Below are positions 19,761 through 56,048 of a DNA stretch of 64,000 nt, piece after piece. The notes beneath the pieces were generated by a model. It ran no database searches. It was not told the DNA's origin and was given only the letters and a program-made list of their open reading frames with translations. Made by a program: the position numbers and the translations under genes. Within the stretch, counting starts at the first letter, position 1. Each line of letters opens with the position of its first letter. The stretch lies in the IMG/VR virus record IMGVR_UViG_3300008107_000202; one strand, given 5' to 3'. This DNA is from a virus (taxonomy: Duplodnaviria; Heunggongvirae; Uroviricota; Caudoviricetes).

Positions 19761-21284
19761 ATGTTTCAACCTAACCCAATTCTCGCTGCTGACTTCTACA
19801 AAATCGGTCACGTTTTCCAGTATCCGCTTGGTACCAGCGAAATCTATTCCAACCTGACTGCTCGTTCGAACAAGCGTGCTCCGCTTGCAAACGGTCGATA
19901 CATTGACAAGGTTGTATTTGTTGGTTTGCAAGTATTCCTGATGCAATTCCTGCAAGAGCAATTCCAAAAGCTTTTCTTTGATAAGCCAAAGGCTGATGTT
20001 GTTGCTGAGTTCAATCGTCGTAATGATGGTGCTCTCGGTCCTGGCTCGGTTGATAGCTCGCACATTGCTGCGCTGCACGACCTGGGTTACCTGCCTCTGG
20101 AAATCAAGGCACTTCCTGAAGGCTCGCTCGTTCCGATGGGTGTCCCGATGTTGACTGTTCACAATACTCTGCCTGAGTTCTACTGGCTGACGAACTTCAT
20201 CGAAACTGCTCTCAGTGCTGAAATCTGGAAGATTATTACTTGCGCAACTGTCGCGTTCGAATACCGTAAACTGCTTGAGCGTTGGGCTAAGCGAACTGGT
20301 TCTCCGAAGGATTTCGTTCTGTGGCAAGGTCACGACTTCTCGATGCGTGGTATGTCGGGTATCTCCGATGCTGCTCAATCTGGCATGGGCCACCTATTCA
20401 GCTTCCTTGGTACTGACACGATCCCTGCAATCGAAGCTATCGAAAAGTTCTACAACGGTCTTGCAACCTTCGTCGGTGGTTCGGTTCCTGCAACTGAACA
20501 CAGTGTGATGTGTGCTGGTGGCATGGAAGATGAGAAGGAAACCATTCGTCACCTGATTCAAGATGTTTATCCGAGTGGTGTTGTGTCGGTTGTTTCTGAC
20601 ACCTGGGACTTCTTCAAGGTTGTTACTGAAACTGCTACTGAACTCAAGGATGTTATCCTGAATCGTCAACCGAATGCACTTGGTCTTGCCAAGGTTGTGT
20701 TCCGTCCTGACAGTGGTAATCCTGCTGACATTCTCTGTGGTGATCCGAAGGCTCCTGCTGGTAGTCCTGAGTCGAAGGGTGCTGTGGAATGTCTGTGGGA
20801 AATCTTCAGTGGTACTGAGACTGAAACTGGTCACAAGCTTCTGAATCAACGTGTGGGTCTGATCTACGGTGATAGCATCACGCTCGAACGTGCTGAAGAA
20901 ATCATGCAGCGTTTGCACCTGAAGGGATTCGCTTCCGCTAACGTGGTGTTCGGTATCGGTAGCTTCACGTATCAGTACCTGACTCGTGACACTTTCGGCA
21001 TGGCAATGAAGGCTACTTCTGCTGTGGTGAATGGTCAACGTCGCGCACTGTTCAAAGACCCCAAGACTGACGATGGTCTGAAGCGTAGTGCTCGCGGTCT
21101 GCTGAAGGTTCAAGAGCTTGACAACGGTAACTTTGTCCTGCACAATGACTGCACGGTTGAACAAGAACAGACTGGTGCTTTGCAGACGGTGTTCCTCAAC
21201 GGTCGAATCACCAAGATGTTTACCATCGATGAGATTCGAGCTAAGGTCAACACTGCTGTTGACAAGTATCTGCTGACGGTATAA
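19761..21284 (+). CDS. nadV: nicotinamide phosphoribosyltransferase (NAMPT/NadV)
   Basis: The N-terminus ILAADFYKIGHVFQYP and overall length are typical of NAMPT. Confidence 0.85.
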   Translation: MFQPNPILAADFYKIGHVFQYPLGTSEIYSNLTARSNKRAPLANGRYIDKVVFVGLQVFLMQFLQEQFQKLFFDKPKADVVAEFNRRNDGALGPGSVDSSHIAALHDLGYLPLEIKALPEGSLVPMGVPMLTVHNTLPEFYWLTNFIETALSAEIWKIITCATVAFEYRKLLERWAKRTGSPKDFVLWQGHDFSMRGMSGISDAAQSGMGHLFSFLGTDTIPAIEAIEKFYNGLATFVGGSVPATEHSVMCAGGMEDEKETIRHLIQDVYPSGVVSVVSDTWDFFKVVTETATELKDVILNRQPNALGLAKVVFRPDSGNPADILCGDPKAPAGSPESKGAVECLWEIFSGTETETGHKLLNQRVGLIYGDSITLERAEEIMQRLHLKGFASANVVFGIGSFTYQYLTRDTFGMAMKATSAVVNGQRRALFKDPKTDDGLKRSARGLLKVQELDNGNFVLHNDCTVEQEQTGALQTVFLNGRITKMFTIDEIRAKVNTAVDKYLLTV

Positions 21285-22743: not shown

Positions 22744-22880
22744 TGAAAAAGTTCATCTTTACACTCCTGATCGGTGTCTTTGGGGCATTGACAGGAGTTC
22801 TTTTCACTGTATCATACCTCGATCCTGGCATTCGATTAATGATCGGTTTCTTCTTAGCTAACCTCGGAGTCTACTACTAA
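22743..22880 (+). CDS. small membrane protein (45 aa)
   Basis: ATGA overlaps on both sides; hydrophobic. Confidence 0.3.
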   Translation: MKKFIFTLLIGVFGALTGVLFTVSYLDPGIRLMIGFFLANLGVYY

Positions 22881-23731
22881 TGAACTACCCGTCCCTCAAG
22901 CAGATGCAGCAACTCGTCGCAGATAAGCTTGCTATTCAGAAGCTTTATGGTGACGATCTGGTAATGTTTAAGTATTCACGCAAGGCTATGTTCGACTACA
23001 TGTGGTTCAAGCGACCTGAACTCATGGAGTGTCGTGGTCATGTGTACCGTCTTTCGACTGGTGAGCGTGTGGTACATGCTCCCCGTAAGTCGTTCAATTA
23101 TCTTGAGAATGATTGGTGGAAAGATGTTCCATTGAACACCGAAGTCCGTATCGACAAAAAGTTTAATGGTTATATGGCATGTGTAACCTTGGTGGATGGT
23201 GACTGGTTGATTACGACTACTGGTAGTTTCGATAGTGAATACGTCAAGCATGCGCAGAATATGCTGACTGGTCATCCTGCTCTTGAAAACGAAGACAACA
23301 TTGATTGCACACTGGTATTTGAAATCTGCGACAGTAAGTTTGATCCACACATTGTTGAGGAACAAGATGGTGCTCACTATCTTGGTTCTCGCATTTCTAA
23401 CGGAAATTGGCTTGCTTATTCGACTTCCAATACTGTGATTGGAATTACCCTCGGTGAAGCAATTCAACTTGCTGAGCGTGATCACGGTGAAGGTTTCATG
23501 GTCTATCAGCTACAGGGTGATCCTCTGTACAATCGTCCATGTAAGCTGAAGAGTCCGTATTACATTGGTAAGAAAATGCTGATGCGTGCTACTCCGTATT
23601 TTAAGATTGATCGACTACCAAAAATGTGGAAAAATGCACCATATTTGATTCAAGATCATTATCTGTGGTCAGATTGGTGTGAACTACCCGAACAAGAACG
23701 TCGTCTATTTTTGGAGAATCACTATGGATAA
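22880..23731 (+). CDS. Rnl2-like RNA ligase (nucleotidyltransferase)
   Basis: Motif I DKKFNGYMA (KxNG), motif IV EGFMVYQ, motif V CKLKS; the N-terminus resembles T4 Rnl2. Confidence 0.5.
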   Translation: MNYPSLKQMQQLVADKLAIQKLYGDDLVMFKYSRKAMFDYMWFKRPELMECRGHVYRLSTGERVVHAPRKSFNYLENDWWKDVPLNTEVRIDKKFNGYMACVTLVDGDWLITTTGSFDSEYVKHAQNMLTGHPALENEDNIDCTLVFEICDSKFDPHIVEEQDGAHYLGSRISNGNWLAYSTSNTVIGITLGEAIQLAERDHGEGFMVYQLQGDPLYNRPCKLKSPYYIGKKMLMRATPYFKIDRLPKMWKNAPYLIQDHYLWSDWCELPEQERRLFLENHYG

Positions 23732-33870: not shown

Positions 33871-34116
33871 ATGCAAATCGTTAACACTGTCAAGTCTTTA
33901 TTCGCTCCTACCACTCCGAAGGTCACGGTTGCTACCGTCCTGGCACAATTCAGTCAGACTGTCGCTCAACTTGAGCAGGTTCGTGCTGAGAGTGAAGCTG
34001 CTGCGGATGCCGCTGCTGCTACCATCGCTGAACTGGAAGTTCAACGTGCTGATTCGCTGAAGGAAGCCGGTCGTGCTGCCTCGGTTGCTGCGAAGATTTC
34101 TGCTCTGCTGGATTAA
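33871..34116 (+). CDS. Ala-rich small protein
   Basis: ORF only. Confidence 0.3.
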   Translation: MQIVNTVKSLFAPTTPKVTVATVLAQFSQTVAQLEQVRAESEAAADAAAATIAELEVQRADSLKEAGRAASVAAKISALLD

Positions 34117-34183
34117 CCTTGCGCTTGACTCAGGTATCTGAGTCTGTTAAAGTACATCCATCGCAACACACACAGGAGATTTC

Positions 34184-34675
34184 ATGTACAAGAGTACCCT
34201 CAGTCGTCAAGCCCGTCGCAACGCAGTTAAGGCAATCAAGTCTGCTGCGTTGAAGGATGGTAATCCGAATTTCGACGGTGGAATCTGCCAGTACATCAGT
34301 TCTGTGGCTGTACCGGAACAAAAGCATCGATTAGACATTCGTGGTGCAATCAATACAACGCTAGGTAGGGAAGCATTTCTTCCTGATGCTGTGATTCCTC
34401 ACCCTGTTTGTTATCAACCAAAGCTTCGTACCGCAATGCGAATGAAGTTTCTTCGACTCTACGCTGAACAAGGTATTGCATATACTCCGTTCGAATGGTT
34501 GAACAAGGTTGACTCTCGCTTTGCGAAGTGGAAATCTGAAGTCAACAAGATTGCTGCAAAACACAACCTTGTGCCCGCTGTCAATCCTTCTGTCTCTGAG
34601 CAAGAGACGTGGACGAAGCATTACATGAACAATTTGACTCCGAAGCAAGCTTGGGATGCAACTCCCTGGCGATAA
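34184..34675 (+). CDS. hypothetical protein; paralog of 33525..33839
   Basis: Shared sequence blocks. Confidence 0.4.
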   Translation: MYKSTLSRQARRNAVKAIKSAALKDGNPNFDGGICQYISSVAVPEQKHRLDIRGAINTTLGREAFLPDAVIPHPVCYQPKLRTAMRMKFLRLYAEQGIAYTPFEWLNKVDSRFAKWKSEVNKIAAKHNLVPAVNPSVSEQETWTKHYMNNLTPKQAWDATPWR

Positions 34676-34748
34676 CCACACGCTTGACTCGGGTACTCTT
34701 TCAAGCTAAACTCTAGTCTTCTGTTAAACAACCTCTAGGAGAAAACAC

Positions 34749-34976
34749 ATGGAAATCATCGGTAACGCAATCATCGGCACCGCCCGCGAATTCGAAGAGA
34801 ACAAGGTGGAACTCAATGGTGTGGCACTCACGCAAGTCACAATCAATGCCCTCGGTGCCCACAAGGTCATCGAATACTTCGGTGAAGGCCCCAAGCCTGC
34901 CCGTGGCAAGACCCCGAAGGTATACAAGGCTGAGAGCAAGGAAGGTATGGTGTTCAAGCTTCCTGAGTCGGAATGA
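34749..34976 (+). CDS. hypothetical protein
   Basis: ORF only. Confidence 0.3.
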   Translation: MEIIGNAIIGTAREFEENKVELNGVALTQVTINALGAHKVIEYFGEGPKPARGKTPKVYKAESKEGMVFKLPESE

Positions 34977-35111
34977 GCTACAACAGCAGTCAGTACGCTG
35001 CCCAATTGATTTATGATCGGGCTATTCGTGAAGCATGCGGCAAAGTTCCTGCGAGTGAACCGAGTCAATGTCACCAGCCGGTGACTAAAGTAAAGCAAAA
35101 GGAAAAAACCA

Positions 35112-35309
35112 ATGAAGGAACTGCTCGTAATCCTAATGGCAATCACGCTGGTTAGTGCCTTCGTGTTTGCGGGGTATGTTTTCGGTGCTGTCATCGGTAC
35201 ACTGCTGATTTTGTTCTGCGCTGTGGTCTTCAGTGGCTTCCTGATCTTCCTTGCAATCGAAAGCTTGTGGGGTGTACTGAAGTCTCTGTTCAAGCAAAAG
35301 ACCAAGTAA
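35112..35309 (+). CDS. small two-TM membrane protein (holin-like size)
   Basis: Hydrophobic 65-aa ORF. Confidence 0.3.
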   Translation: MKELLVILMAITLVSAFVFAGYVFGAVIGTLLILFCAVVFSGFLIFLAIESLWGVLKSLFKQKTK

Positions 35310-35321
35310 TTCTGTCAGGAT

Positions 35322-35351
35322 TTGACAGCATAGTCTGAATCGCTGTATACT
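35322..35351 (+). promoter_or_regulatory. B-type promoter cassette (TTGACA/TTGCAG-N18-TGTATACT plus conserved leader TCTATCGCAAC..AGGAGA)
   Basis: Four near-identical ~90-nt copies, at 35307-35385, 35888-35935, 36790-36866 and 37358-37436. Confidence 0.55.
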
Positions 35352-35382
35352 GCGTCTATCGCAACAGACAGGAGATAGACAG

Positions 35383-35889
35383 ATGGGATTCCTCTTCGAA
35401 ACTAAGTCGTGCAGCCGTTGTGGTGGTTCTGGTCGCTATAGCTTCAACCTGATGAACGGTGATCGATGCTTCGGTTGCGGCGGCACTGGTCTGCAGCACA
35501 CCAAGCGTGGTTCTGCTGCCCGTGCGTTCTTCCACAAAAGTCTGGAAAAGCCGCTGAGTGAAGTCAAGGTTGGTGATTACATCCTCTTCGACACTTCCAT
35601 GTTCGGTGGCCCTGAACGTTGGTGCAAGGTGGAAGCAATTGAAGCCGGTCAGTCTCCCTACATCATCAATGGTGTACGTGACGAGTCGATTCGCTACAGT
35701 CTGAAGCTGAGCCGCAAGGGCAAGGAAGTCTGCGGATGGAGTGGTCTTGCGTTGGATCACATGTTGAAGTCCGTCAAAAATGATGAAGAATTGAATGCTC
35801 GCAAGGCTGCTGCTATTGCCTACCAGGGCACGTTGAGTGAAAAGACTGGTAAGCCTGTGAAACAAAAAGTCCAGGCGATTTCCGAGTAA
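35383..35889 (+). CDS. Zn-ribbon protein
   Basis: CSRCGGSGRY..CFGCGGTG. Confidence 0.4.
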   Translation: MGFLFETKSCSRCGGSGRYSFNLMNGDRCFGCGGTGLQHTKRGSAARAFFHKSLEKPLSEVKVGDYILFDTSMFGGPERWCKVEAIEAGQSPYIINGVRDESIRYSLKLSRKGKEVCGWSGLALDHMLKSVKNDEELNARKAAAIAYQGTLSEKTGKPVKQKVQAISE

Positions 35890-35937
35890 TTTTGTCGGGA
35901 TTTGCAGAAGTCTTCAGAACTAGTGTATACTGCGTTT

Positions 35938-36139
35938 GTTGAGTCGTTCTTCTAGTGGCCCAGGAAATGTTCCCGTCTTGTGGACAGAACGCAGGTTCGA
36001 ATCCTGCACGACTCGACACCTTAACTTAGTTCCTAGTTTAACGGCCAAAAACGAAGCCTCTATCCCGTTCGATTCGGGTAATCTGCATGATGGTCGCAGG
36101 GGTTGTATCCAAGGTTCGATTCCTTGGGGAACTAAGTTA
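35938..36139 (+). ncRNA. Structured tRNA-like RNA driven by B-type promoter copy 2: element 1 (35938-36011) with acceptor GAGTCGT/ACGACTC and T-arm GCAGG-TTCGAAT-CCTGC; element 2 (36018-36139) closed by a perfect 15-bp stem and containing two T-arm mimics
   Basis: Stems and T-loops read directly. No plausible ORF, so the overlapping table ORFs were rejected. Confidence 0.35.
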
Positions 36140-36161
36140 AGGTAATCAACAGGAGAACACA

Positions 36162-36782
36162 TTGGAAAAAATCGTTGACATTCTCGGGCAAGAAATCAAA
36201 GTTGGTGATGTAGTTGTTGCCACAAACCAAAGCACGATCTACAATCAAGTTCACGTTGTGACTCGTCTTGGTTCTGCTGACAAAATTCAAGTCAACGGGT
36301 CAAGCTATGCTAAGGCTGTGTACCTGATGGTCATCAATGAACAATACAAGATTGCCAAGGGTGAAGAAAAATTCGACGCTCTGCGCATGCAACATGAAGA
36401 GTACATGAACGAAGAACGTGTGGTCAAAAAGCCGCATACCCCTCGCTTCCTTGTTCTGCGATATGCTGATTACCCTCGCAATGTGAACGGTAAATACACC
36501 GTTGATCAGTGTCCGGTCTTTTACGTGATAGGTACCTGCGCAACAATTCAGGATACAGTCAAGAAAATCAACGATATTACCAAGGATTGCAGTAAGGGTG
36601 AATACTTCGAACGTAAGAATCTGAAACCCAAGAACATGCAGTTTAGTTATTCGGACTTCAGCAAGGACTTCAGTCGAAAGGCTCTCGTTGAGATTGACAT
36701 GGACCTTGAATTGTGGGTTGATCAACGTGTGAGTGAAGACTCTGAAACATACAAAAAGCTTCTGACGCTGCAAAACCGATAA
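36162..36782 (+). CDS. hypothetical protein
   Basis: ORF only. Confidence 0.4.
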   Translation: MEKIVDILGQEIKVGDVVVATNQSTIYNQVHVVTRLGSADKIQVNGSSYAKAVYLMVINEQYKIAKGEEKFDALRMQHEEYMNEERVVKKPHTPRFLVLRYADYPRNVNGKYTVDQCPVFYVIGTCATIQDTVKKINDITKDCSKGEYFERKNLKPKNMQFSYSDFSKDFSRKALVEIDMDLELWVDQRVSEDSETYKKLLTLQNR

Positions 36783-36862
36783 CCCTACATTTTTGTCGGG
36801 ATTTGCAGAAGTCTCAGGAACTGGTGTACAATGCGTTTATCGCATCGCAAACAGGAGATTGA

Positions 36863-37357
36863 TTGATGGCTCGCACTCGTACTGTTGTTCGCCCCCTCTG
36901 TGCTGGTGAAGAGGCAATGCAAGGTCGTGAAAGCATGCAAGAAACGAAGGATTGCATCGTTCGTGCAATCACGAATGCTGCCTGCGGTGAGTACACCTAC
37001 GAAGAAGTTCACGCTGTTTGCCGCCAGCATGGTCGTGTGAACAACCAAGGTATGACTGCTGACATGTATTTCCCTCTGCTTGTCAAGCTTGGTTTCGAAC
37101 TGAAGTTCGTTTGTGGCACCACCAATGCTGCAATGTATGCAGATCGTGTTGCCAAGGAAATGCAACTGCAGTATCGTCGCGTCAAGGGTGTTACTCTTGA
37201 GCGTGCTCGCTGTGGTCTTGGTAAGGGTTCATTCTTCGTTGCTATCATCGGACATGCTACGTGTGTCGTGAACGGTAACATCTACGATAGGGGCGCGATG
37301 AAGGGTGGTTGCAGTGTCACTCATGTGTGGAAGTTCAAAGGTAAGCCGCAAACTTGA
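36863..37357 (+). CDS. hypothetical protein
   Basis: ORF only. Confidence 0.4.
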   Translation: MMARTRTVVRPLCAGEEAMQGRESMQETKDCIVRAITNAACGEYTYEEVHAVCRQHGRVNNQGMTADMYFPLLVKLGFELKFVCGTTNAAMYADRVAKEMQLQYRRVKGVTLERARCGLGKGSFFVAIIGHATCVVNGNIYDRGAMKGGCSVTHVWKFKGKPQT

Positions 37358-37434
37358 GTAATTCTGTCGGGATTTGCAGAAGTCTCAGGAACTGGTGTAT
37401 ACTGCGTCTATCGCAACGCACATAGGAGAAAACA

Positions 37435-37860
37435 ATGGCTTGGTTCAGCAAAGAAAACATGCAGTCGAAGCGCCCCCTGGTCAATGCTGTACTCAAGAAG
37501 TACGACATGAAAGGCACGCTCAGCGGTACGAACACTTCAGGTGTCACGCTCACGATTACCGAAGGTCCGCTGAATTTCATGGAAAATTGCGCGCATAAGA
37601 TGGAAAACGACGCGCATGGTCGTCCTGCGAACGCTGTGACGCCTGATGAAATTCGTGCTCGCAAGTACATGGATGTGAACCGGTACTGGTACCATGAGCA
37701 TTTCGACGGTCAGTGTCTGGAATTCCTCAAGAAAATCATGCAAGTGCTCGACGATGGTAACCACGACAACAGTGATCCAATGACGGATTACTTTGATGTG
37801 GGTTGGTATGTGTACGTCAAGATTGGCAAGTGGGAGAAACCCTATGTTCTTCGAAAGTAA
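37435..37860 (+). CDS. hypothetical protein
   Basis: ORF only. Confidence 0.4.
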   Translation: MAWFSKENMQSKRPLVNAVLKKYDMKGTLSGTNTSGVTLTITEGPLNFMENCAHKMENDAHGRPANAVTPDEIRARKYMDVNRYWYHEHFDGQCLEFLKKIMQVLDDGNHDNSDPMTDYFDVGWYVYVKIGKWEKPYVLRK

Positions 37861-38461
37861 AAAACCCTTGCGGGTGCTGGTAGCATGTGAGACTTCTGGC
37901 ACCGTTCGTAATGCCTTCGCTAGTCGAGGGCATTCTGTCATGTCAGTTGACCTACTGCCTGCATCCGATGGTGTACAATCCGGCATCCATGTCGTTTGTG
38001 ATGTGTTGGAATTCATCAAGTGGAATGGTTACAAGTTCGACCTGATGATTGCGCATCCTCCATGCACTCACCTAGCTGTGTCGGGTGCTCGGTGGTTCAA
38101 GGATAAGCAGGAAGAGCAAAAGAATGCTGTAGACTTTTTCCTGAAGCTTACACAGGTGCAGATACCCGCATGGTGCATTGAGAATCCTGTATCGGTCATG
38201 TCAACGCACTATCGCAAGCCTGATCAACGCATTCAACCCTGGCAACACGGGCATCAGATGCAGAAGACCACATGCCTTTGGTTAAAGAATCTCCCTCTGT
38301 TGCAGCCTACAAACGTTGTTGACAAGGGTGAGTTTCATGTGACAAAATCAGGCAGGCGAATTCCTGCTTGGTACAATCTACCTGAGCGAAAGTCCAGATG
38401 GCAAGAGCGCAGCAAGACGTTCGAAGGGGTGGCACAGGCTATGGCTGTACAGTGGGGGTGA
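37844..38461 (+). CDS. short C5-cytosine methyltransferase-like protein (motifs I-like ACETSGT, IV PPC, VI ENP); lacks a target-recognition domain
   Basis: AHPPCTHLAVSG; WCIENPVS. Confidence 0.4.
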   Translation: MFFESKKPLRVLVACETSGTVRNAFASRGHSVMSVDLLPASDGVQSGIHVVCDVLEFIKWNGYKFDLMIAHPPCTHLAVSGARWFKDKQEEQKNAVDFFLKLTQVQIPAWCIENPVSVMSTHYRKPDQRIQPWQHGHQMQKTTCLWLKNLPLLQPTNVVDKGEFHVTKSGRRIPAWYNLPERKSRWQERSKTFEGVAQAMAVQWG

Positions 38462-39480
38462 TCAAAAACCCATAGGGCTAAAGTTGACTAAAAAACCCTT
38501 GGGGGGTGCTTGACAAAATGCATCCCTGGTGGTGGTTAACCTGGGCCAGATTCGGCGGCCAGCGTTCCGCATGGTGAGAAGCCGTTTCATGATGCGAAAA
38601 GCACGCCGAAGCCCGGGATTCCACAATGTAGAACGTAACACCACGATATGAAACGCTGACTAGCATAAAATCAATCCCTTGTCAAACGTAGGGTCTTTTC
38701 ATATGGTGAAATCCATATAGCACGGAATGTAAACCCCTGTCAAGCGCAGGGGCTTTTCGCATTGTGAAACGTCCAGGCGGCAGCGTGACTAAGCAGTCAC
38801 AGACAAAACCGAAGAGTCACAAAGTATACTGGCACGGATTCTGCTAGTAGCAAACCGCATGCCAGCTTTTGCATACCCCCTACGGGTACCCCTATATACC
38901 CCCGTGGGGTACCCCCTCAATTTACCTAGGGCAGCGCATACCCTACCCCCTATTTTTTACAGATACCCTAGAGGGGGTCGATCTTTTTTTGCCAAGGGTA
39001 GGACAAGGGAAAGCAGGAAAACGGCGCCAAAGCCCGATTAGACCCATCCGTGGGCATTCTCACGATATGAAACGGTCTGACAATCGACTATCTACAGGTT
39101 ATCCACAGAATGCAGGCATGAGACTTGCTAAAGAATCTGCATTAACCCTGCAATTGCGTAGGGTATTGTTTACATGCTAGAATTCTATACGGTCAGAGCA
39201 AATGTCGTATTTATACAACAAACGCGCAGGCTCCACGTCCACCCCAGTCGCTTTCGAATAGAACGATTGTACTACAGAATCCAGGCGCACAAGCAATACC
39301 CGACAAAAACACAGGGACAAATAAAACGCTTGACAGTCCAGGCGGAAACGTAGTAATCGCATGCGCCAGCGTCTAGATGAACAGCACCAGGGAACCTAGG
39401 GTTTACACCTATTCCCTTACAGTTGACAAGGTTATTGTTCGGGTTCACAATAGACCCATCGAATCAAGAAACGGATACAG
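38462..39480. repeat. ~1-kb non-coding region rich in short direct repeats (CACGATATGAAACG x2, GTCCAGGCGG x2, TACCCCC x4) and hairpins (CCCCTG-N7-CAGGGG + CTTTTC)
   Basis: No ORF with an RBS. Repeats read directly. Confidence 0.5.
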
Positions 39481-39664
39481 AGATGCACCCCGACTATCTG
39501 CTTTTCCTAGTGCCCGTGGCTCTGATTTGTGGCATCATCGCCATCGATTTGATTAACAGGTAAGTTTTGCATATCCCCTAAACAGGGGGTTGCATCGATA
39601 AGGGTTCACTGACAGAATCCTAATCAATGCAGCAACAGTGCCGCAGAAACCGAAAGGGTTAATC

Positions 39665-39799
39665 ATGTTTGAAGTGACAATTGTTTGGGAGGGTGAATTC
39701 TTCGCCCATGAAGCCACCACGGAAACCGAAGCGCGGGAATGGCTCGCGCAGTATCCGAATGGCGCACAATGTCGCGGCAGAATCTGGCGCTTGTGGTAA
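39665..39799 (+). CDS. small protein (44 aa) in the GC-rich island
   Basis: RBS-like AAAGGG plus ATG. Confidence 0.3.
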   Translation: MFEVTIVWEGEFFAHEATTETEAREWLAQYPNGAQCRGRIWRLW

Positions 39800-39872
39800 T
39801 GTAGCGGATAGCCCCTAGCAGTGGGGGCTATACGATGCAAACCCGCATCAGTCAACCATAGGACAATGAACC

Positions 39873-40037
39873 ATGTTCAATAAGCCGGACCCTCTCGCAC
39901 TCCGTGACGTAATCGACCGGGAGAACACCCGCAAACGCGACGAAGCAGGGCAGCGCCGCAAGGCACAATCCGCATTCCGCAAGGCCCGCAAGGCGCACAG
40001 CCGCAACAGCGTTTGCGCTTTCGTCAACGCCGACTGA
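39873..40037 (+). CDS. small basic protein (54 aa); preferred over the antisense ORF 39848..40048
   Basis: ATG with upstream AGGACAA. Confidence 0.3.
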   Translation: MFNKPDPLALRDVIDRENTRKRDEAGQRRKAQSAFRKARKAHSRNSVCAFVNAD

Positions 40038-40062
40038 TCAACCAGCACAAGGAGTTAGAACC

Positions 40063-40317
40063 ATGTTTCAACGTTTCACCAGTACCCGTCTGATTTCCAC
40101 CGATGCCGAGTGCCAGGGCATGCGCCCGGGTCAGTGGGTGACCCTCACGAGCGGCGCCCGGGGTCAGTATCTGGGAACGACCCGCGCGGGTGTTACCGTC
40201 ATTCGTTGGCAGTCCGGCCGCTTCGCCAGCACCAGCAGCGGCGGAACGACCCCGCAGGATGACGCCCGCAACAATCGCCCGCTTCGTCAGTACGCCAAGC
40301 GATACGGGGCCAAGTGA
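40063..40317 (+). CDS. hypothetical protein (GC-rich island)
   Basis: ORF with GC-rich codon usage. Confidence 0.4.
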   Translation: MFQRFTSTRLISTDAECQGMRPGQWVTLTSGARGQYLGTTRAGVTVIRWQSGRFASTSSGGTTPQDDARNNRPLRQYAKRYGAK

Positions 40318-40464
40318 TGCGAGCAGCCCTTAACGTGGTTTGCATTCTCGCGGCCTATACGTGGGCCATCCTGACCGGTAACACCTGACCGGGTGAACCC
40401 GTCAAGCCTCCGCCATCATGGGGGCTTAGGGGTGCATCCTCGCACTACAACCGGAGCCGCTAGC

Positions 40465-40773
40465 ATGGCTGCAATTTCAACCCGCTACATACCCCCGACG
40501 AACACCAAACCCGCCCGCGTCAAAGCATGGCGAACGGGGCACAAGGAAGGCCCATCGGTGACCGTGGACTTTCACGGTGATGCAACTCTCCCGGGTGAAC
40601 CCGTGCAATGCCCGCATGCCCGCGCAGCATGGCGCCTCGTGCTGAAGCTTGACCCGTGGTTTCATGGTCGGCCGTGGTTTCTCGCAGCTTCCACCGACGA
40701 CCAGCGCGGGTATCTGTTCGCAGTCAACGCAGCAGGCAGCGCCACGGAATTCATTGTTCCCCCTCAAGCCTGA
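40465..40773 (+). CDS. hypothetical protein (GC-rich island)
   Basis: ORF with an internal ATG start. Confidence 0.4.
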   Translation: MAAISTRYIPPTNTKPARVKAWRTGHKEGPSVTVDFHGDATLPGEPVQCPHARAAWRLVLKLDPWFHGRPWFLAASTDDQRGYLFAVNAAGSATEFIVPPQA

Positions 40774-40788
40774 AGGAAACCCGACACC

Positions 40789-41583
40789 ATGCACAAGAAT
40801 CTGACCCCCGGTCAACTTCCCGCGAAACCTTACCGCTTCGTTAGGGTCAGTAGCAACCGCAAAACAGGGCCGATCCCGGTAACGTCAACCGCTGCACAGT
40901 CCTGTCCCATGGCATGCCCGATGCGAACCGATGCGGTCGGCGGATGCTATGCCGCCAGCGGGAACAGCGCGATCCATTGGCGGGCACTGTCCGAAGGCCG
41001 GGCCGCTACTGCCCTGGACTTGCAAGGGTTGACCGATGCAATCCGGGCTTTGCCCCGGGGTCAACTGTGGCGGATGAACGAGGCAGGCGACCTGCCCACC
41101 ACGGACGGCCGCAGCATCGATGCCGATTCACTGCGGGCCATCGTTGACGCCAACCGGGGCCGGCGCGGGTTCACCTACACGCACCATGACCCGATGGCCA
41201 GTAGCGGCCCGGGTTCACTCACCAATGCAGCATTCATCGATGCCGCGAACGTGCAAGGGTTCACCGTGAACCTATCCGCGAACAATCCAGCCCATGCCGA
41301 TGCCCTCGCATCCCTCGGGATTGGTGCGCCCGTGGTGACACTCATGGAGCCGGGTGCATGGAAGGGCAAGCACTTCGCCAGCACTCCCGCAGGCAGGCAC
41401 ATCGTGCAGTGTCCCGCAGAGTATGCCGAGGGCATGACTTGCGCACAGTGTGAACTCTGCGCCAATCGTGAACGCCGCTCGATTGTCGGGTTTACGGCAC
41501 ACGGCAGCAGTAAGCGCCGGGTTATCGGGATTGTGAATGCTGGCAGTGTGAAGCGCCAGGATGCACGCCAGGGGGTTGTTTGA
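40789..41583 (+). CDS. hypothetical Cys-rich protein (CPMACPM..GGC ; CPAEY..CAQCELC), GC-rich island
   Basis: ORF only. Confidence 0.45.
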   Translation: MHKNLTPGQLPAKPYRFVRVSSNRKTGPIPVTSTAAQSCPMACPMRTDAVGGCYAASGNSAIHWRALSEGRAATALDLQGLTDAIRALPRGQLWRMNEAGDLPTTDGRSIDADSLRAIVDANRGRRGFTYTHHDPMASSGPGSLTNAAFIDAANVQGFTVNLSANNPAHADALASLGIGAPVVTLMEPGAWKGKHFASTPAGRHIVQCPAEYAEGMTCAQCELCANRERRSIVGFTAHGSSKRRVIGIVNAGSVKRQDARQGVV

Positions 41584-41735
41584 TGTTTGACACCAAACAT
41601 GCCGCCGCCGTCACGCTGCTAGTAATCGGGGCCGCCCTACTCTGGATCATCCCCACAATCGCCGCTTGGTTCATCCGACGCTATCCACCCGGTAACCCGC
41701 AGCAACCGCCGCCAACTGACCCGCCCGCATCGTAG
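41583..41735 (+). CDS. small membrane protein (50 aa), ATGA-coupled
   Basis: One TM segment plus Pro-rich tail; followed by hairpin GCCCCAGG..CCCGGGGC. Confidence 0.35.
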   Translation: MFDTKHAAAVTLLVIGAALLWIIPTIAAWFIRRYPPGNPQQPPPTDPPAS

Positions 41736-42287
41736 CGAGCAGCATAAGCCCCAGGTATCACGCCCGGGGCTTAGTCGTTTGAATTGTCGTCGGATAATGC
41801 CTAGGGTGACAATTGCCGCTTCGCCTGGACTATAGCCCGAGCCTATCACCGCCTGGATACCGATAGAGTGTAACTATCGCGCGCCCTCGCTATCGCTCGG
41901 GTGTCGCTTCGCTCCTATCGTGTCAGTGGATGCTGTCGCTTTGCTGTCGGATGATGCTGTCGGTGTCACCACCCGGTGACTATCTAGATGGACGATGGGT
42001 TTTCTGTCCGTGGATATTTGCGAATTGCTGGAGGGTATGGTGGAGGGTGGTAGGCTGCGCATCAAGCACATTCTCCAAACTGCTGGTTAATCGACCCAAC
42101 GGTCGGGTAATACACCAGTGTTACTATGATATTTTCTGTGCGGTTTATCCGTTTATAGATACATGTACTTATTTCTATAGGATATTTTGGTAAGCAAAGT
42201 CACTCAGGTACTACCCCGTCTCTTCAAACGCTAGGAATAATTTATAAGAATTACTATCAGCTATCCTAGCAGAGTCATCAGACAAAG

Positions 42288-42316
42288 AAAAAACCCCCAG
42301 GAGTTAACCAGGGGGT
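42288..42316 (-). terminator. Terminator for the leftward ClpP/PhoH operon (CCCCCAGG-N6-CCAGGGGG preceded by A-run on plus, which is a T-run on minus)
   Basis: Hairpin plus T-run on the minus strand. Confidence 0.45.
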
Positions 42317-42368
42317 CTATGTGGTGTAGTGTTATAACTCAGGTTATAACGTTGCTTTTATACAACAC

Positions 42369-43748: not shown

Positions 43749-44041
43749 TCAGCAGCACCTGACTTTCTGCTAACTTTAGGTACTTTTGGTTCAGAAGAAG
43801 GCTTGTCTTGTACTTTTTCTTCAACTTGTGGTTTTTCTACAACAAGTTCAGTAGGAAGAACTTCACTCTCAGGAGTAGCAATCATGTAAGCAACAAACAT
43901 TGTTCCATAGCTCATTGGTGCTCTAACGTTACTAGTCAGATCGATTTCATAACCCTGCTTGATGAGTTCTTGAATCTTAGAGCAGAAAGCAAAAAGACCA
44001 TACTCATTAACTTCAATTACTTCTTGTTTGTTGTTGAACAT
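43745..44041 (-). CDS. hypothetical protein
   Basis: ORF only. Confidence 0.4.
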   Translation of the reverse strand: MFNNKQEVIEVNEYGLFAFCSKIQELIKQGYEIDLTSNVRAPMSYGTMFVAYMIATPESEVLPTELVVEKPQVEEKVQDKPSSEPKVPKVSRKSGAAE

Positions 44042-44187
44042 AAGTTACTCCTATGAAAGTTAAGATTATTCCGAATCCACTGATTCGTTACATCTATTAT
44101 ACCACAAACTAGGGATAAGTCAACCTGTGATAATTTATAGGTAATAAGCGATATTGCATTATTATCGGTTTAGGATGATACAGACGT

Positions 44188-44210
44188 AAAAAAACCCGCG
44201 CGAGGCGGGC
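44188..44210 (-). terminator. Strong minus-strand Rho-independent terminator (GCCCGCCTCGCGCGGG + TTTTTTT)
   Basis: Read directly. Confidence 0.55.
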
Positions 44211-44728
44211 ATGGTAGCGTTCAGCAACGCTGTCGGTATAGCTGTCAGCACATAGGTCGGTATAACGGGCATAGTAGCTGTCAGCAGTGATAGGTATGGA
44301 TGAAGATCACTCGCTTGCTCACTGACCATTCGTATATAGGTCATAATACCATACGTAGTGTTGTATTTCAACAACATCATTGTAGGTAACGGACGGTACG
44401 ACTTTTAGGCAAACCAACCAAAAAAGATGGACTCTCGTCCTTCGGTCAGTTGCACTAAAAGTCGGTCGTTACTTTGGAGCAAAACAGCCGTAGCTGTCAT
44501 CATTGTGAGGTGCCCGCATTCTCATTCAACCATCAACCAGGGGAGTGATCCAACCGCTTGATGACCTTTTAGCCTAGAGAATATCTCTGCTACCGTCAAG
44601 TGCAGAGAAACGATTCGGCAGGGATTATCCGTCAATGTCCAGACGCTCGGTGCTTACGCTTGGTCAGGCAAGACTTGGTGAATGCCCACTCAGGTGCCGT
44701 CTCCACGACACACTAGACCCCGAGGTTA

Positions 44729-51688: not shown

Positions 51689-52519
51689 ATGTGGACAACC
51701 AGCAACCTTAAACCTGAAATTCAATCTAAACCATTAGAGCACAGAGAAGCGTTTGTCACAGCAGCTAATGCTGCCCTTAAGAAAGGTCGAACGCTCTCTG
51801 AAGCTGAGTTTGCTGGTGAAGCGGCACTTGCTGCTTTATTGAAAGCAAAAGCTAGAAGTTCTCAGACTTTGCTGAACGAAGAAGTAAAGCTGAGACAACC
51901 TCCCCCTCATCTTGCTGCAATTCTTAAAGCTGCAGAGCTTAAGAAGAAAGCACTGGTTGAGAAAGTAGAAGAACCACAGCCTGTTGAAGTCAGACCTACC
52001 GTGGTAGAGCTTCGTTTCGACAGAGAAGGGTATTTGATTGTCAAATTTTCTGACGGCAAGATCGTAAGGTCTAAGAACGCAGTAAAGAAAGACGAACAAA
52101 TCACACAGAATCTGACCGTACAGACATCAGGTAGAGGCAATGGTACTTCTGAATTCTCAACTGAAAGTGAACTAAGTAGACAGTATTACTATGATGTATC
52201 TGAGAACCTAATCAGAATTGAATACGTATCTGGCAACTTCAAAACATTCGAATACAACTCAATCACTGGACTGCTTTCGATAGAAAACTATATCAAAGGT
52301 AGTACCAACTACCGTAAGACATATTTGTACGATTCAGCACAAAGACTGATTGAAATCATCTATGAGGTCGTAGTGTATACACCACCAGTCTTTACGGGAT
52401 TCTTTATTCCTCAGTATTCTGAGCCGCAATCTTTAGTGTTTAGTGGTAACTTCACAAGTCAATACTCTGAACCGGAAACCTTAGTATTTGATGGTCTTCT
52501 TGGACCTCAATACAGTTAA
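51689..52519 (+). CDS. structural protein (hypothetical)
   Basis: ORF only. Confidence 0.3.
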   Translation: MWTTSNLKPEIQSKPLEHREAFVTAANAALKKGRTLSEAEFAGEAALAALLKAKARSSQTLLNEEVKLRQPPPHLAAILKAAELKKKALVEKVEEPQPVEVRPTVVELRFDREGYLIVKFSDGKIVRSKNAVKKDEQITQNLTVQTSGRGNGTSEFSTESELSRQYYYDVSENLIRIEYVSGNFKTFEYNSITGLLSIENYIKGSTNYRKTYLYDSAQRLIEIIYEVVVYTPPVFTGFFIPQYSEPQSLVFSGNFTSQYSEPETLVFDGLLGPQYS

Positions 52520-52532
52520 TTGGAGAAAACAA

Positions 52533-55500
52533 GTGCCAGCAATTTTTTCGCAACAAAGAGTGTTTGCGTCAGCTACACCACCACCTTCGCCCCCTCCACC
52601 GCCGCCACCCCCACCGCCTCCTGCTGCTCCTGGCTTGACGGTCAGTGCTGGCGCTTCCAGTGGTACGGCTGGTGGTGGCACAGTCAGTGGTCCAACATTG
52701 ACTGCCCCAGGTGGAAACCTTTCGTCGGTGAACTGGTCTGCTTCAGCTTCTCCTTCAGGACTGACGATTAGTCCATCAAGTGGAACACTGACTCCGGGTC
52801 AAAGTGTAACTCCAACCCTTAGTTCCATTACTGCTGCTATTTATGCAATTACGGTTGCCAATAACAGTGGTGGTACGATTACAGGTTCAGCGGGTAATGT
52901 TCAGTTCTACGCACCAGTTCCACCGCCACCACCTGCGCCCGCCCCATCGGGTGGAGTTATGCAACTCACCTTGACCAGCGCCACCAGTGGTACGCTACCA
53001 TTTGCGGCTGGTTATACCTTCCGCCAAGGCGACATCCCAGCCGGTCAGGGTGTTGTCGTGTCAGGCGCCACCGCTCAAGCCACGATCAAGAGCACCTGGC
53101 CCGATGGCTCGGCGCGCATCGCCGTCATCGCGGGCACGTACACCAGCGCGGGCAGCCCGGTGACGCTGACGATGAGCGCGGGCACTGCCAGCACGGGAAC
53201 GGTGCTCACCACGTCCGACCTCGATGCAGCCCTGGCGGGCAACAACGTGATCGTGGACGCAGGCGGCCTGGGGCTGGCCTCGTGGAGTGCTGGCGCCGAC
53301 TGGGCGAGCCCCTTCGCCACCTGGGTGAGCGGGCATCGGATGTCGTCGTGGATTTACCGCAAGCCGGTGGGCAGCGACACGCACCTTGTCGCGTGGCTCG
53401 AAGTGCGGCTCTACGCGGGCGGCGCCGTCGAAATCCTGCCTTGGATCGAGAACGGCTATCTGAACGTAGCCTCGCCGACGAACAAGAGCGCCACCTACAC
53501 CTTCAGCATGGGCGGCACGACGCGATTCAGCGGCGTGATCGACCTCAAGCACCACCAGCGCACACCCCTCATCAGCGGCACGGGCCTGTCGCACTGGCTC
53601 GGCACCGACCCGGGCGTGACGATGCGGCACGACGTGGCGTACCTCATGAGCACGGAGATGGTGCCCACGTACCGCGCGCTTACGCCGGCCGGCGCTTCGG
53701 TTGTCAGCTCAGTCTGCCCGACCACCTTTGCGCCGCTGCAGCAGGGCGGGTACACCTACCAATCCGACAGCATGAGCAGCGGCGGCGCAGCCGGGCCCAT
53801 TGGCCTGCTGCCAACGCATGACGTGCTGTATCTGACCTGTGCCGCTGCTGACGCTGCGCGGGTTTACAAGGCGGTTGTCTTCAACGGCTACTCTGCTGGC
53901 CGCTATCGCCACCACTACCGTGACGAGACGACCAACCGGCCGCCGTTGACGAGCGCTTACCCAACCCTCTGGATTGACAACAACACGCCCACGCCCAGCG
54001 GCGGCGAAGGCCCGGAGCGCGACATCGCGCACCATCCCTCTGTCGGCTTCATGGCGTATCTTGTCACCGGGCGCTGGTACTTCATGGAAGAAGCTGCTCT
54101 GTCGGCGAGCTTCAATCACTTCGTCAAGAGCTTCAACTCGGTCATGCGCGACGGGTCGAAGGGCCTGTTCCAGTCCTGCTTCGGCGCGTGGCAGACCCGC
54201 TCAGCCGCTTGGACGATGCGGACCTGGGCGCAGGCCCTGGCGATCATTCCCGACGCCGACACAACACTGAAGGCTGATTACCTTCAGGTCTGGCACGAGA
54301 ACGTGGACAAGTTCCACGCGCAGTACGTCGTCCAGCCCGGCAACCCCTGGGGCTGGGTCGAGCCGGGTGAGGAGTACGACGCCACCTTCCGACTCGGCCA
54401 CGGCGCACCCTGGCAGCAAGATTTTGTTAGTGCAGCGGTGGGCTACTCGCGGGCGCTCGACCTCACGACCGACGCCACGCGCAAAGCCCGCTGGCAGGCG
54501 TTTCACGAGTGGAAGGCACAGTCAACCATCAAGCGCCTGGGCCCGTCCGACGCCTTCTGGTACATCAACGGCGGCGTGTATGGCCAGCGCATCAGCCCGT
54601 CAGCACTGACCGCGGACGACTACCGCAACGGCACCGGCACGTTCTACACCCCGGCGCAGAGCTACGCTCAGATCGTCGCGGGACTGACTGCTGCCTCGGC
54701 CCCGACAGGCTGGATCGGCACGACCGAGGGTGTGCTGAACGGCGAAATCATGCCGGGCGAGTCGGCCATGTGGGGCAACCTGACGCCATCGCTGGCCTAT
54801 GCGGTGCGGTTCGGTATCAGCGGTGCTCTGGCTGCGTATCAGCGGCTTGTTGGCGCGGGCAACTGGATCCCGCTTGCTGCTGCTTTTAATGCGCAGCCGG
54901 TGTGGTCTGTGCTCCCGGCCAGTGGTGCGCTGCCGACGTGGCTTGCTTCGCAGCCGCTGAACACCTGGATTGAGATTCCAAACACGAATGGTCGCGTTAC
55001 CACTGCAGTGGTTAACGGCGTATCTGAGCCTGTGCTGACAACCGGAGATGGGGCATTTGAAGCTTGGGGCGCATTCACGGTAAAAGGTGACACCAGTGAG
55101 CTTTTCATTGCAGCTTCTGGTGGGCACGGTGATAGCTCCGATAATCGCGTGGTCAGTATTTCTCTGTCAAGTGATACCCCGACTTGGGTTCTACGCAGCC
55201 AACCTTCGACAGTAGTGCAACTTGACCGCACAAGTGGTTACTACCTCGACGGTAAGCCCACTTCTCGTCACCTATATGACGATATTTTCTATTTACCGCA
55301 ACTACAAAGGGTGATGATGGTAGGTGGTCGCGCTATTTATGGTGGAGGTGGGCCTGAAACGCCTGCTGTCACTGGATTTGATGTGAACAGCAATACCTGG
55401 GACACTGAAGGAAAGTTTACAAGTGTCGTGCAGAGTGGCGGCACACCTTTTGGTATGGTGATGAATAAGCGGACAGGTGCAGTTTTCACCACAATCTTGG

Positions 55501-56048
55501 GTGCGGTCAGTGGTCGCTGGTCCCCTCCAGTATCAACTACAGGAACCGGGTTAGGTACATTCACAAGCAACGCTGTTACGGGCTTCTCAGCCGTCAACAA
55601 CCGTTGGCCGGGAGCTTGGGATGGAAGTCGCAGTCAGTGCTTTGTTCTAAATCTTGGCAACGGGGAGGGTGGCAACGTCGATTTTGGCCTGCGTGCCTAT
55701 CGCTGGAGTGACACAGGTGGTGTGGCTAATACTATCACGTTTAACACCAGTGCGACATACACCGCTTGGGTGGCTTCAGTACCCGAATATGCAGCGATGG
55801 ATTACGACCCAGACAATGACTGTTATCTGTTTATGCACAAAAAGCAGGCACCTGCTATTCAACGTATTAAACCTAACAGTGGTACAGTGTGGGATATGGA
55901 CACGTTGACTGTGGCAGGCGGCCCACCAACGGCTCGACCATCAGGTAATTATGGGCCTCAAGGCTCATTCAAATACGTGCCAGCGCTTCGCGGTTTCGCG
56001 TATCTGCCACGCGCAAATAGTAACATTTGGTTCATAAGGACGGCCTGA
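52533..56048 (+). CDS. large tail fibre/adhesin-like protein with poly-Pro linker and a central GC-rich (foreign-looking) domain
   Basis: GTG start after GGAGAA. PPPPSPPPPPPPPPPAAP; Ig-like Ser/Thr repeats. The central ~1.9 kb is visibly GC-rich. Confidence 0.5.
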   Translation: MPAIFSQQRVFASATPPPSPPPPPPPPPPPAAPGLTVSAGASSGTAGGGTVSGPTLTAPGGNLSSVNWSASASPSGLTISPSSGTLTPGQSVTPTLSSITAAIYAITVANNSGGTITGSAGNVQFYAPVPPPPPAPAPSGGVMQLTLTSATSGTLPFAAGYTFRQGDIPAGQGVVVSGATAQATIKSTWPDGSARIAVIAGTYTSAGSPVTLTMSAGTASTGTVLTTSDLDAALAGNNVIVDAGGLGLASWSAGADWASPFATWVSGHRMSSWIYRKPVGSDTHLVAWLEVRLYAGGAVEILPWIENGYLNVASPTNKSATYTFSMGGTTRFSGVIDLKHHQRTPLISGTGLSHWLGTDPGVTMRHDVAYLMSTEMVPTYRALTPAGASVVSSVCPTTFAPLQQGGYTYQSDSMSSGGAAGPIGLLPTHDVLYLTCAAADAARVYKAVVFNGYSAGRYRHHYRDETTNRPPLTSAYPTLWIDNNTPTPSGGEGPERDIAHHPSVGFMAYLVTGRWYFMEEAALSASFNHFVKSFNSVMRDGSKGLFQSCFGAWQTRSAAWTMRTWAQALAIIPDADTTLKADYLQVWHENVDKFHAQYVVQPGNPWGWVEPGEEYDATFRLGHGAPWQQDFVSAAVGYSRALDLTTDATRKARWQAFHEWKAQSTIKRLGPSDAFWYINGGVYGQRISPSALTADDYRNGTGTFYTPAQSYAQIVAGLTAASAPTGWIGTTEGVLNGEIMPGESAMWGNLTPSLAYAVRFGISGALAAYQRLVGAGNWIPLAAAFNAQPVWSVLPASGALPTWLASQPLNTWIEIPNTNGRVTTAVVNGVSEPVLTTGDGAFEAWGAFTVKGDTSELFIAASGGHGDSSDNRVVSISLSSDTPTWVLRSQPSTVVQLDRTSGYYLDGKPTSRHLYDDIFYLPQLQRVMMVGGRAIYGGGGPETPAVTGFDVNSNTWDTEGKFTSVVQSGGTPFGMVMNKRTGAVFTTILGAVSGRWSPPVSTTGTGLGTFTSNAVTGFSAVNNRWPGAWDGSRSQCFVLNLGNGEGGNVDFGLRAYRWSDTGGVANTITFNTSATYTAWVASVPEYAAMDYDPDNDCYLFMHKKQAPAIQRIKPNSGTVWDMDTLTVAGGPPTARPSGNYGPQGSFKYVPALRGFAYLPRANSNIWFIRTA

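Follow-up and report, generated by a model that had tools for sequence, protein, structure and literature searches.

The closest isolates to the phage considered here are Curvibacter phage P26059A and Limnohabitans phage DC31. The former is a siphovirus (84 kb, 43.6% G+C) that grows lytically on a Comamonadaceae strain (PMC5964084), the latter has 37.6% G+C compared with 59.25% in its host (PMC12195039), and a lytic life style is described for both of these cultured relatives (PMC5964084, PMC12195039). They therefore mark an AT-rich phage lineage on GC-rich hosts. The stretch analysed here (the window) comprises 64,000 nucleotides of the Caudoviricetes record IMGVR_UViG_3300008107_000202 from IMG/VR. 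The phage belongs to a family of ~80-85 kb, the P26059A-like group, which infects high-GC freshwater Comamonadaceae. The window has 46.1% G+C as a whole and harbors a compact block of host-like G+C, island A (39,700-42,050), with six small genes, one of which encodes a protein of the DUF7227 family. Morons, known from lambdoid and other temperate phages through the work of Hendrix and colleagues, are extra transcription units with their own promoter and terminator and an atypical composition, lying between conserved genes. A preliminary description of the window had taken the block for such a moron, acquired recently from a high-GC donor. Island A is instead a GC-rich early unit that is conserved throughout the family, polymorphic in its alleles and at a separate equilibrium at its silent sites.

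The best described counterpart is the locus of P26059A (KY981271, ORFs 112-115, ORF114 being the DUF7227 gene; ORF, open reading frame). It has the same order, in which small ORFs precede DUF7227 and one small ORF separates the latter from the convergent ClpP and PhoH genes. Its PhoH is 53% and its DUF7227 protein 46% identical to those of the window. It differs in that the DUF7227 gene has a G+C of only 0.49 against 0.45 for the genome and that no homologue of o84, the 84-aa companion of DUF7227 in the window, was detected; the genes of the locus are annotated as hypothetical.

Base Composition

The G+C content of island A is 0.612, compared with 0.448 for the backbone, which is the window outside its two GC-rich islands (the second, island B, is treated below). 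The 500-bp windows of island A lie 4.0-5.8 standard deviations (sd) above the backbone mean (backbone sd 0.036, maximum 0.542). The preliminary impression of a G+C far above that of the flanks is borne out by computation, the value standing well apart from the genome mean, and so is the remark that third codon positions are mostly G or C: G+C at third positions (GC3) is 0.61-0.74 in the ORFs of island A vs. ~0.42 in the backbone. First positions are also raised (GC1 0.58-0.66), as are second positions (GC2 0.57-0.62 vs. 0.36), and the non-coding DNA within the island (575 bases) has 0.57 G+C vs. 0.39-0.48 in other intergenic stretches. The limits first proposed, 39,480-41,740, need to be moved, as the GC-rich block starts at ~39,660, with the first ORF, and ends at ~42,050, ~300 bp past the last one. 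The AT-rich right flank with hairpins that had been noted is confirmed; 42,051-42,368 has 0.40 G+C and contains terminator hairpins. On the left, a milder GC shoulder of 0.49-0.50 (vs. 0.44-0.46) occupies positions 34,000-39,000, ~5 kb, and L005 and L108 (L numbers denote the records compared) have a shoulder ahead of their islands too, the right-hand drop being abrupt.

A dinucleotide test of the signature was run as well. Expressed as δ*, the GC-normalised dinucleotide distance (×1000), island A is 160 away from the backbone, beyond any of 200 random backbone windows of the same size (mean 60, maximum 113). It is close to the homologous islands of relatives (56-76) and unlike 70%-GC phage contigs (156). 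At the codon level the main shift is from T-ending to C-ending codons, and in two-fold codon boxes there is hardly any difference between island A and the backbone.

Conservation within the Phage Family

The order DUF7227, convergent ClpP and PhoH, TerL and portal recurs in P26059A and in ~16 independent metagenomic contigs. Across these ~17 contigs PhoH is 53-99% identical to that of the window, and the cassette is found at the same position in every relative examined that carries the locus. The partner genes of DUF7227 are conserved within the phage family, and at deep distances the genes of island A diverge broadly in step with the backbone. The GC excess of the DUF7227 region over the backbone varies between lineages: +4 to +5 points in P26059A, about +10 in L022 and L117, +14 to +18 in L024, L116 and L118, and +16 to +21 in the clade of the window. 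In unrelated genomes the DUF7227 gene is mostly within ~5 points of its surroundings, and at most ~9. Because the excess there is so small, amino-acid composition was rejected as the cause of the high G+C.

This distribution bears directly on the idea of a recent moron, a cassette inserted from a high-GC donor with no time to ameliorate. Part of that idea stands: G+C and dinucleotide signature are atypical, a promoter and a terminator-like hairpin lie at the ends of the unit in a moron-like layout, and the same genome does contain one genuine import from ~70%-GC phages, island B. Its age and its donor do not. The cassette cannot be called recent because it occupies the same position in ~17 contigs, down to 53% PhoH identity, and its synonymous sites are fully turned over, the four-fold degenerate ones with no net AT-ward decay. 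No presence/absence polymorphism is seen among close relatives, the cassette being present in all ~17 carriers of the locus; the one contig without DUF7227 is L012, which is distant and DC31-like. The homologue search found no GC-rich donor or reservoir, since homologues beyond the family are at most 52% identical and lie in bacterial or metagenome-assembled-genome contigs that lack the partner genes. No direct or inverted repeats bound island A and it contains no integrase, transposase or other mobility genes; nor was an integrase seen nearby. A recent acquisition is thus scarcely credible, while an ancient capture from a high-GC genome is plausible.

An old locus might also be kept GC-rich by repeated re-import, if lineages replaced the cassette time and again with copies that evolve in other phages or prophages, of high G+C, with which they share their hosts. 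Replacement of alleles clearly occurs, island B documents exchange with ~70%-GC phages, and DUF7227 is common in genome contigs of Comamonadaceae (Variovorax, Polaromonas, Aquabacterium, Rhodoferax). However, every closer homologue examined sits in an AT-rich backbone (17 of 17 carriers with at least 52% identity), the bacterial homologues, at most 52% identical, come without o84 and the other partners, and the signature of island A is unlike that of the 70%-GC phage contigs. Such a reservoir is very improbable.

Island B illustrates what an import looks like in this genome. Its GC-rich part (52,920-55,699) lies within a structural, fibre-like ORF of 1,186 aa (52,488-56,048) that has a native N-terminus, a poly-proline linker and a weak BACON-like match; the deviation in G+C, visible at 52.5-55.1 kb, is stronger than that of island A. 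It shares 83% DNA and 92% protein identity with the IMG/VR contigs L111 and L112, which are uniformly ~70% G+C. Although both islands are GC-rich in the same AT-rich genome, only island B has matching donor-type genomes, a shift that extends to the two-fold codon boxes and a dinucleotide signature inside the backbone range. From these features, island B seems to stem from a fairly recent exchange of a module with a phage of high G+C. ORF119 of P26059A (L001 10,800-12,633), annotated as a membrane-anchored cell surface protein, has 0.57-0.60 G+C vs. 0.44; the pattern suggests that the family has repeatedly come to carry GC-rich modules for structure or host recognition.

Silent Sites

Four-fold degenerate sites of the island are fully turned over. 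Between the window and L004 or L005 their identity is 0.35-0.45, near saturation, chance expectation being 0.30. In every lineage the G+C at these sites (GC4) is nonetheless 0.65-0.87 in island genes vs. 0.13-0.30 in backbone genes. When DUF7227 is compared across 13 lineages, none of its 37 usable four-fold sites is constant; these sites show 3.4 different bases each and a mean GC of 0.67, while the 39 variable four-fold sites of PhoH average 0.19. Changes were polarised on the terminal branches of four close alleles with L107 as outgroup, distinguishing losses of G or C (strong to weak, S>W) from gains (W>S). Four-fold sites of the island experienced 5 S>W and 6 W>S changes, implying an equilibrium GC of 0.87 where the current value is 0.85, and those of the backbone 11 S>W and 14 W>S, on 141 S and 678 W sites, implying 0.21 (current 0.17). 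The W>S share at island sites, 6 of 11, compares with 4.5% predicted from backbone rates (binomial p = 3e-6). A looser four-fold count for the island gives 22 S>W vs. 21 W>S, and the counts imply an equilibrium GC4 of 0.76-0.87. At the first two codon positions, in contrast, S>W exceeds W>S both in the island (20 vs. 8; implied equilibrium 0.36, current 0.59) and in the backbone (24 vs. 9; 0.23, current 0.44). Because polarised four-fold substitutions are balanced, the high silent-site G+C of island A (GC4 ~0.7-0.85, the backbone lying at the opposite end with ~0.2) is an equilibrium and not a remnant. An AT-biased mutation pressure thus acts on all regions, and only at the silent sites of this unit is G or C favoured by something.

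With moderate confidence, we read island A as a family-conserved unit of the host RNA polymerase (RNAP) type, anciently captured, whose silent G+C is actively held and which may act as a host-interaction module. Several results weigh against this reading. Few polarised four-fold changes were available (11 and 43 S<->W events), all from one gene family. Over all sites the flux in the island is AT-ward (S>W 54 vs. W>S 29), because positions 1 and 2 drift AT-ward in island and backbone alike, and at amino-acid-changing positions island A is not at equilibrium. In a neighbour-joining tree of 93 DUF7227 sequences the family groups together in 37 of 60 bootstraps, and the P26059A form appears as sister in 4 of 60; vertical descent of the GC-rich form is not shown by this tree. 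Translational selection by host tRNAs, a candidate for the GC-favouring force, has to contend with ~29 kb of neighbouring genes that have the same promoter type and yet show backbone codon usage (GC3 0.34-0.55), only the last unit being GC-rich. In addition, two-fold boxes barely differ, the non-coding DNA of the island is GC-rich too, and C- and T-ending codons of one box share a tRNA. The promoter distribution and the two-fold boxes weaken the proposal that immediate-early genes read by host tRNAs are the sole cause.

A part of these data would also be accounted for by passive, slow amelioration, in which island A is the fading remnant of an ancient import, preserved by purifying selection on its proteins and not by any GC-favouring force. 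The AT-ward flux over all sites and at positions 1 and 2, the graded excess of +4 to +21 points among lineages and two-fold boxes that are already backbone-like all agree with such a decay. The four-fold sites do not: their flux is balanced, the equilibrium they imply equals the present high GC4 at a W>S share far from that set by backbone rates, and the 37 sites, every one of them substituted within the 13 lineages, have kept 0.67 GC. We consider passive amelioration unlikely.

Allelic Diversity

Among the window, L008, L106 and L108, nucleotide identity is 72-83% in the island (76-83% for DUF7227) vs. 89-98% in the backbone. The number of synonymous substitutions per synonymous site (dS) reaches 0.8-1.4 in the island where that of the backbone is 0.07-0.47. 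The ratio of non-synonymous to synonymous rates (dN/dS) is 0.05-0.2 for o84, o102 and DUF7227; for o84 it is 0.05 against L008 at a dS of 0.57. From these values, the alleles are old, constrained by purifying selection and not fast-evolving. Fast positive selection was rejected as the source of their divergence, dN/dS being ~0.1.

The transitions between similar and dissimilar sequence are abrupt. The window is 99-100% identical to L008 up to 39,900, 72-87% up to 41,700 and 93-100% thereafter; its identity to L119 is 99.9-100% over 4.5 kb upstream and through o102 and then falls to 82-84% from ~40,800-40,850. L123 carries an identical o84 beside a different DUF7227 allele of 273 aa. The alleles of the island are far older than the backbones in which they sit and are shuffled by homologous recombination among near-identical genomes (98-100%), with breakpoints at or inside the DUF7227 gene. 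Most contigs whose o84 is identical to that of the window (L119-L127) stop within the island, as a rule in DUF7227 or immediately ahead of it; such truncation is to be expected where one sample contains several alleles and assembly fails between them. A combination of old alleles, purifying selection and shuffling would be expected of a host-interaction or counter-defence gene. Outside the island, a further mosaic patch (43,951-44,250) has 79-82% identity to L008 in a context of 95-100%, and a 194-nt insertion or deletion relative to L002 and L008 is found at ~44,723; neither is GC-rich.

Exchange of this kind raises the possibility of GC-biased gene conversion at a recombination hot spot, where heteroduplex repair would favour G or C whatever the type of site. 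In line with this, the exchanged block and the GC-rich core coincide, the non-coding DNA of the island is GC-rich, the relative W>S rate at positions 1 and 2 is ~2x that of the backbone (not significant, p = 0.09), and the GC shoulder reaches ~5 kb upstream. Such a process would, however, have to be reconciled with a net AT-ward flux at positions 1 and 2, with two-fold boxes that barely shift and with other mosaic patches, such as that at 43,951-44,250, that are not GC-rich. To our knowledge biased gene conversion is not established for phages. This explanation appears improbable.

Proposed Mechanism

Returning to the preferred reading of an anciently captured and actively held unit, island A would be the last unit of a long rightward early/middle operon in a lytic phage of ~85 kb and 45% G+C. 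The cassette may go back to an ancient capture from a genome whose G+C resembled that of the host, and island B seems to go back to a more recent one. Since capture, a GC-favouring force at silent sites would have kept it GC-rich. That force would most likely be selection on the DNA, the mRNA or the codon choice of this unit, and not leftover ancestry; selection on DNA or mRNA, through escape from silencing or nucleases or through mRNA stability, is consistent with the data. The unit would work as a host-interaction module, for takeover or counter-defence, in which DUF7227, as an Fe-S enzyme with a radical-SAM-like fold (SAM, S-adenosylmethionine), may act in concert with the small protein o84. 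Frequency-dependent selection may keep multiple allelic lineages in the population.

A more far-reaching version, offered tentatively and quite possibly wrong, is that the genome speaks two stable codon dialects: one small unit would be held by selection at a silent composition opposite to that of the genome and would also be the locus of ancient allelic lineages, those of DUF7227 and o84. If this were true, the GC-rich state would be functional. It might allow escape from AT-directed silencing or nucleases of the high-GC host, or tune mRNA stability or translation, in a host-interaction module under balancing selection. Island A offers a tractable case for asking what holds local G+C against genome-wide AT-biased substitution, and it singles out DUF7227, whose homologues number in the thousands among phages of Pseudomonas, of cyanobacteria and of fresh water, and o84 as a conserved yet allelically diverse pair.

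Architecture of the Locus

Judged from its sequence elements, island A looks like a promoter-to-terminator unit of six genes, all on the plus strand. A consensus scan places a sigma-70-like promoter, TTGACA-17-CACAAT, at 39,423-39,451 (plus strand), the last of a long plus-strand series. Its -35 element and flank are kept in L119, L120 and L108 despite a variable downstream spacer. This spacer includes a variable leader insert of 225 bp (39,440-39,664, plus strand), which has a G+C of ~0.45 and is outside the GC-rich block; it holds a 26-aa hydrophobic ORF (39,484-39,563) and a hairpin. The insert is complete in the window and L008, L108 keeps its 3' ~80 nt, and in L119-L125, otherwise 99.9% identical, a much shorter stretch replaces it.

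The first gene of the GC-rich unit, o44 (39,665-39,799, 44 aa), has homologues in L008 (100%), L108 (93%), L004 (84%) and L005 (46%) and a weak Icd-like match (E 0.015) below the cut-off. After it comes a plus-strand hairpin with a 10-bp GC stem (39,808-39,831; RNA fold -23.6 kcal/mol, z -3.2) and then o54 (39,873-40,037), a very basic protein of 54 aa with homologues in L008 (83%), L004 (69%) and L108 (37%). The 84-aa protein o84 (40,063-40,317) is the constant companion of DUF7227. A second plus-strand hairpin (40,404-40,427; RNA fold -22 kcal/mol, z -2.3) precedes o102 (40,465-40,773, 102 aa), with homologues in L106 and L008 (92%), L004 (45%) and L024 (42%). The dN/dS of o102 is 0.07-0.11; it has a weak N-terminal match to phrog_3199 and distant matches in two Roseobacter phages. 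The DUF7227 gene (40,789-41,583, 264 aa) forms the hypervariable core of the island. The start of the last gene, o50 (41,583-41,735), overlaps the DUF7227 stop; it encodes a 50-aa single-pass membrane protein, its hydrophobic core being read from the translation, with homologues in L008 (87%), L106 (86%), L108 (76%), L107 (42%) and L009 (40%).

A terminator-like hairpin (41,745-41,773, plus strand) closes the unit. The fold of 41,736-41,800 has -28.1 kcal/mol and z -5.1, and none of 200 shuffles folds equally well; the consensus scan did not list the hairpin because its U-tract is weak. Beyond it a GC-rich non-coding tail (41,774-42,050, G+C ~0.56-0.60) with short direct repeats extends to the AT-rich convergent-terminator region. 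The tail has 85-95% identity in L008, L106 and L108, which is backbone-like, and contains the repeat D12 (41,921-41,962). Direct repeats at 41,880-41,965, between two convergent operons, comprise three GATGCTGTCG-like elements and several copies of CTATCG, and these could be candidate protein-binding sites. To the right of the island follow ~300 bp of AT-rich DNA (42,051-42,368) with the terminator of the convergent ClpP-PhoH operon. On the left, ~1 kb of non-coding DNA (38,462-39,420) carries repeated hairpin and promoter-like elements (38,677-38,710; 38,737-38,771) and tandem ATACCCCC..GGGTACCCC units at 38,873-38,915; it is partly conserved in L004 and matches no Rfam family. At gathering thresholds Rfam finds only tRNAs, none of them within island A. 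NCBIfam and PADLOC searches of the six island proteins gave no significant match, and Megablast of island A against 50,697 phage records gave none at all.

The DUF7227 Protein and Its Partner

The preliminary description had seen only unknown proteins in the island, among them a Cys-rich one of 264 aa. That ORF proves to match the Pfam family DUF7227 (PF23872) over residues 15-246 with E 1e-76 (257.8 bits, cut-off 27), and, with seven cysteines that are all invariant and clustered, it is not strikingly Cys-rich. The family comprises 5,376 homologues; its 186 phage records, invariably annotated as hypothetical, belong mainly to Pakpunavirus and related Pseudomonas phages and to cyanophages. The related family GP88 (PF17338) is also touched by 23 of 58 relatives. 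An AlphaFold model with a predicted local distance difference test score (pLDDT) of 93.5 shows a partial beta/alpha barrel, with the invariant C39, C43 and C53 in the loop after the first core strand (31-34) and a second invariant cluster, formed by C208, C218, C221 and C224, at the C-terminus. The placement of the first cluster recalls radical-SAM enzymes, and EpeE/YydG (8ai1), QueE (5tgs), spore photoproduct lyase (4fhc), viperin (5vsl) and pyruvate formate-lyase activase (3c8f) were compared. The spacing, however, is CX3CX9C (C39, C43, C53) in place of the radical-SAM motif CX3CX2C, and none of 58 members matched a Radical_SAM or Fer4 family at E up to 10. A profile search against PDB sequences returned nothing at E up to 10, and Foldseek against the PDB gave only weak, generic TIM barrels. 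The model weakly suggests a putative Fe-S enzyme with a radical-SAM-like barrel. A literature search found no paper mentioning DUF7227, and "GP88" leads to progranulin papers.

The small protein o84 adjoins DUF7227 in L004, L005, L008, L022, L024, L108, L116 and L117. In L011 it adjoins a distant DUF7227/GP88-like gene (26% identical), and it is also found in the phage-like contig L043. With only 16 clusters among 5.8 billion proteins, o84 is confined to this phage family; its AlphaFold2 model (pLDDT 70) has no informative fold match. In isolated phages neither o84 nor o102 accompanies DUF7227, and in Pseudomonas phage PaoP5 and phage DSL-LC05 the neighbours of DUF7227 are small hypothetical genes that offer no functional association.

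Genome Context

The genes of the window include those for TerL, a Mu-like portal, a ClpP-like protease, PhoH, a primase-helicase and ThyX. TerL is 501 aa long in the window vs. 783-814 aa in L005 (12,662-15,013) and L010, where it shows a weak LAGLIDADG match; from its sequence, the long form probably arose by insertion of an intein or a homing endonuclease. A pair of RNA ligases, one Rnl2-like and one T4 Rnl1-like, NAMPT and a protein like phosphoribosyl-pyrophosphate synthetase are encoded at 12,121-13,182, 18,350-19,174, 19,761-21,284 and 22,880-23,731. This set of NAD-salvage and RNA-repair genes resembles known phage counter-defence sets.

On the plus strand between 10,307 and 39,451, 38 TTGACA elements occur where ~7 are expected, ~1 per kb, most of them with TAnnnT 16-18 nt downstream; sites of this type are rare to nearly absent in the structural region. 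This distribution suggests that 10.3-39.4 kb is a long early/middle region transcribed by host RNAP from many promoters, of whose predicted host-RNAP-type units island A would be the last. The window contains 13 tRNA genes, in an array at 40-6,959 (minus strand) and at 35,941-36,015 (plus strand), to which Rfam adds one tRNA-like match. Many of them read A-ending codons; the seven in question (UUA, CAA, AAA, AGA, ACA, GUA and GGA) make up 10.6% of backbone codons, 4.5% of those of island A and 2.6% of those of island B.

Comparison with Known Systems

Atypical G+C is routinely read as recent horizontal transfer; here it marks an old, family-wide feature. The two marks by which a recent transfer is recognised are lacking in island A: there is no close homologue in a composition-matched donor genome, as island B has, and silent sites do not decay to the composition of the recipient (four-fold S>W 5, W>S 6). 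Taken together, islands A and B are a clear warning to anyone who detects transfer in phages from composition.

Like a moron, island A has promoter- and terminator-like ends (39,423-39,451 and 41,745-41,773, at the level of sequence), an atypical G+C and small accessory genes. Unlike a moron, it occupies a fixed site throughout a lytic family and its composition is at equilibrium at silent sites. Close relatives in which the flanking genes adjoin and the unit is absent were not found; the variation consists of old alleles and not of presence or absence.

The other system with which island A can be compared is the division of phage genes into early and late codon-usage classes. Unlike in those classes, only 2.3 kb differ here, positions 1 and 2 and non-coding DNA are shifted as well, and the codon difference does not follow expression class, as judged from promoter type and not from timing. 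What the systems share is that two sets of genes in one genome use different synonymous codons and that their silent sites are apparently selected.

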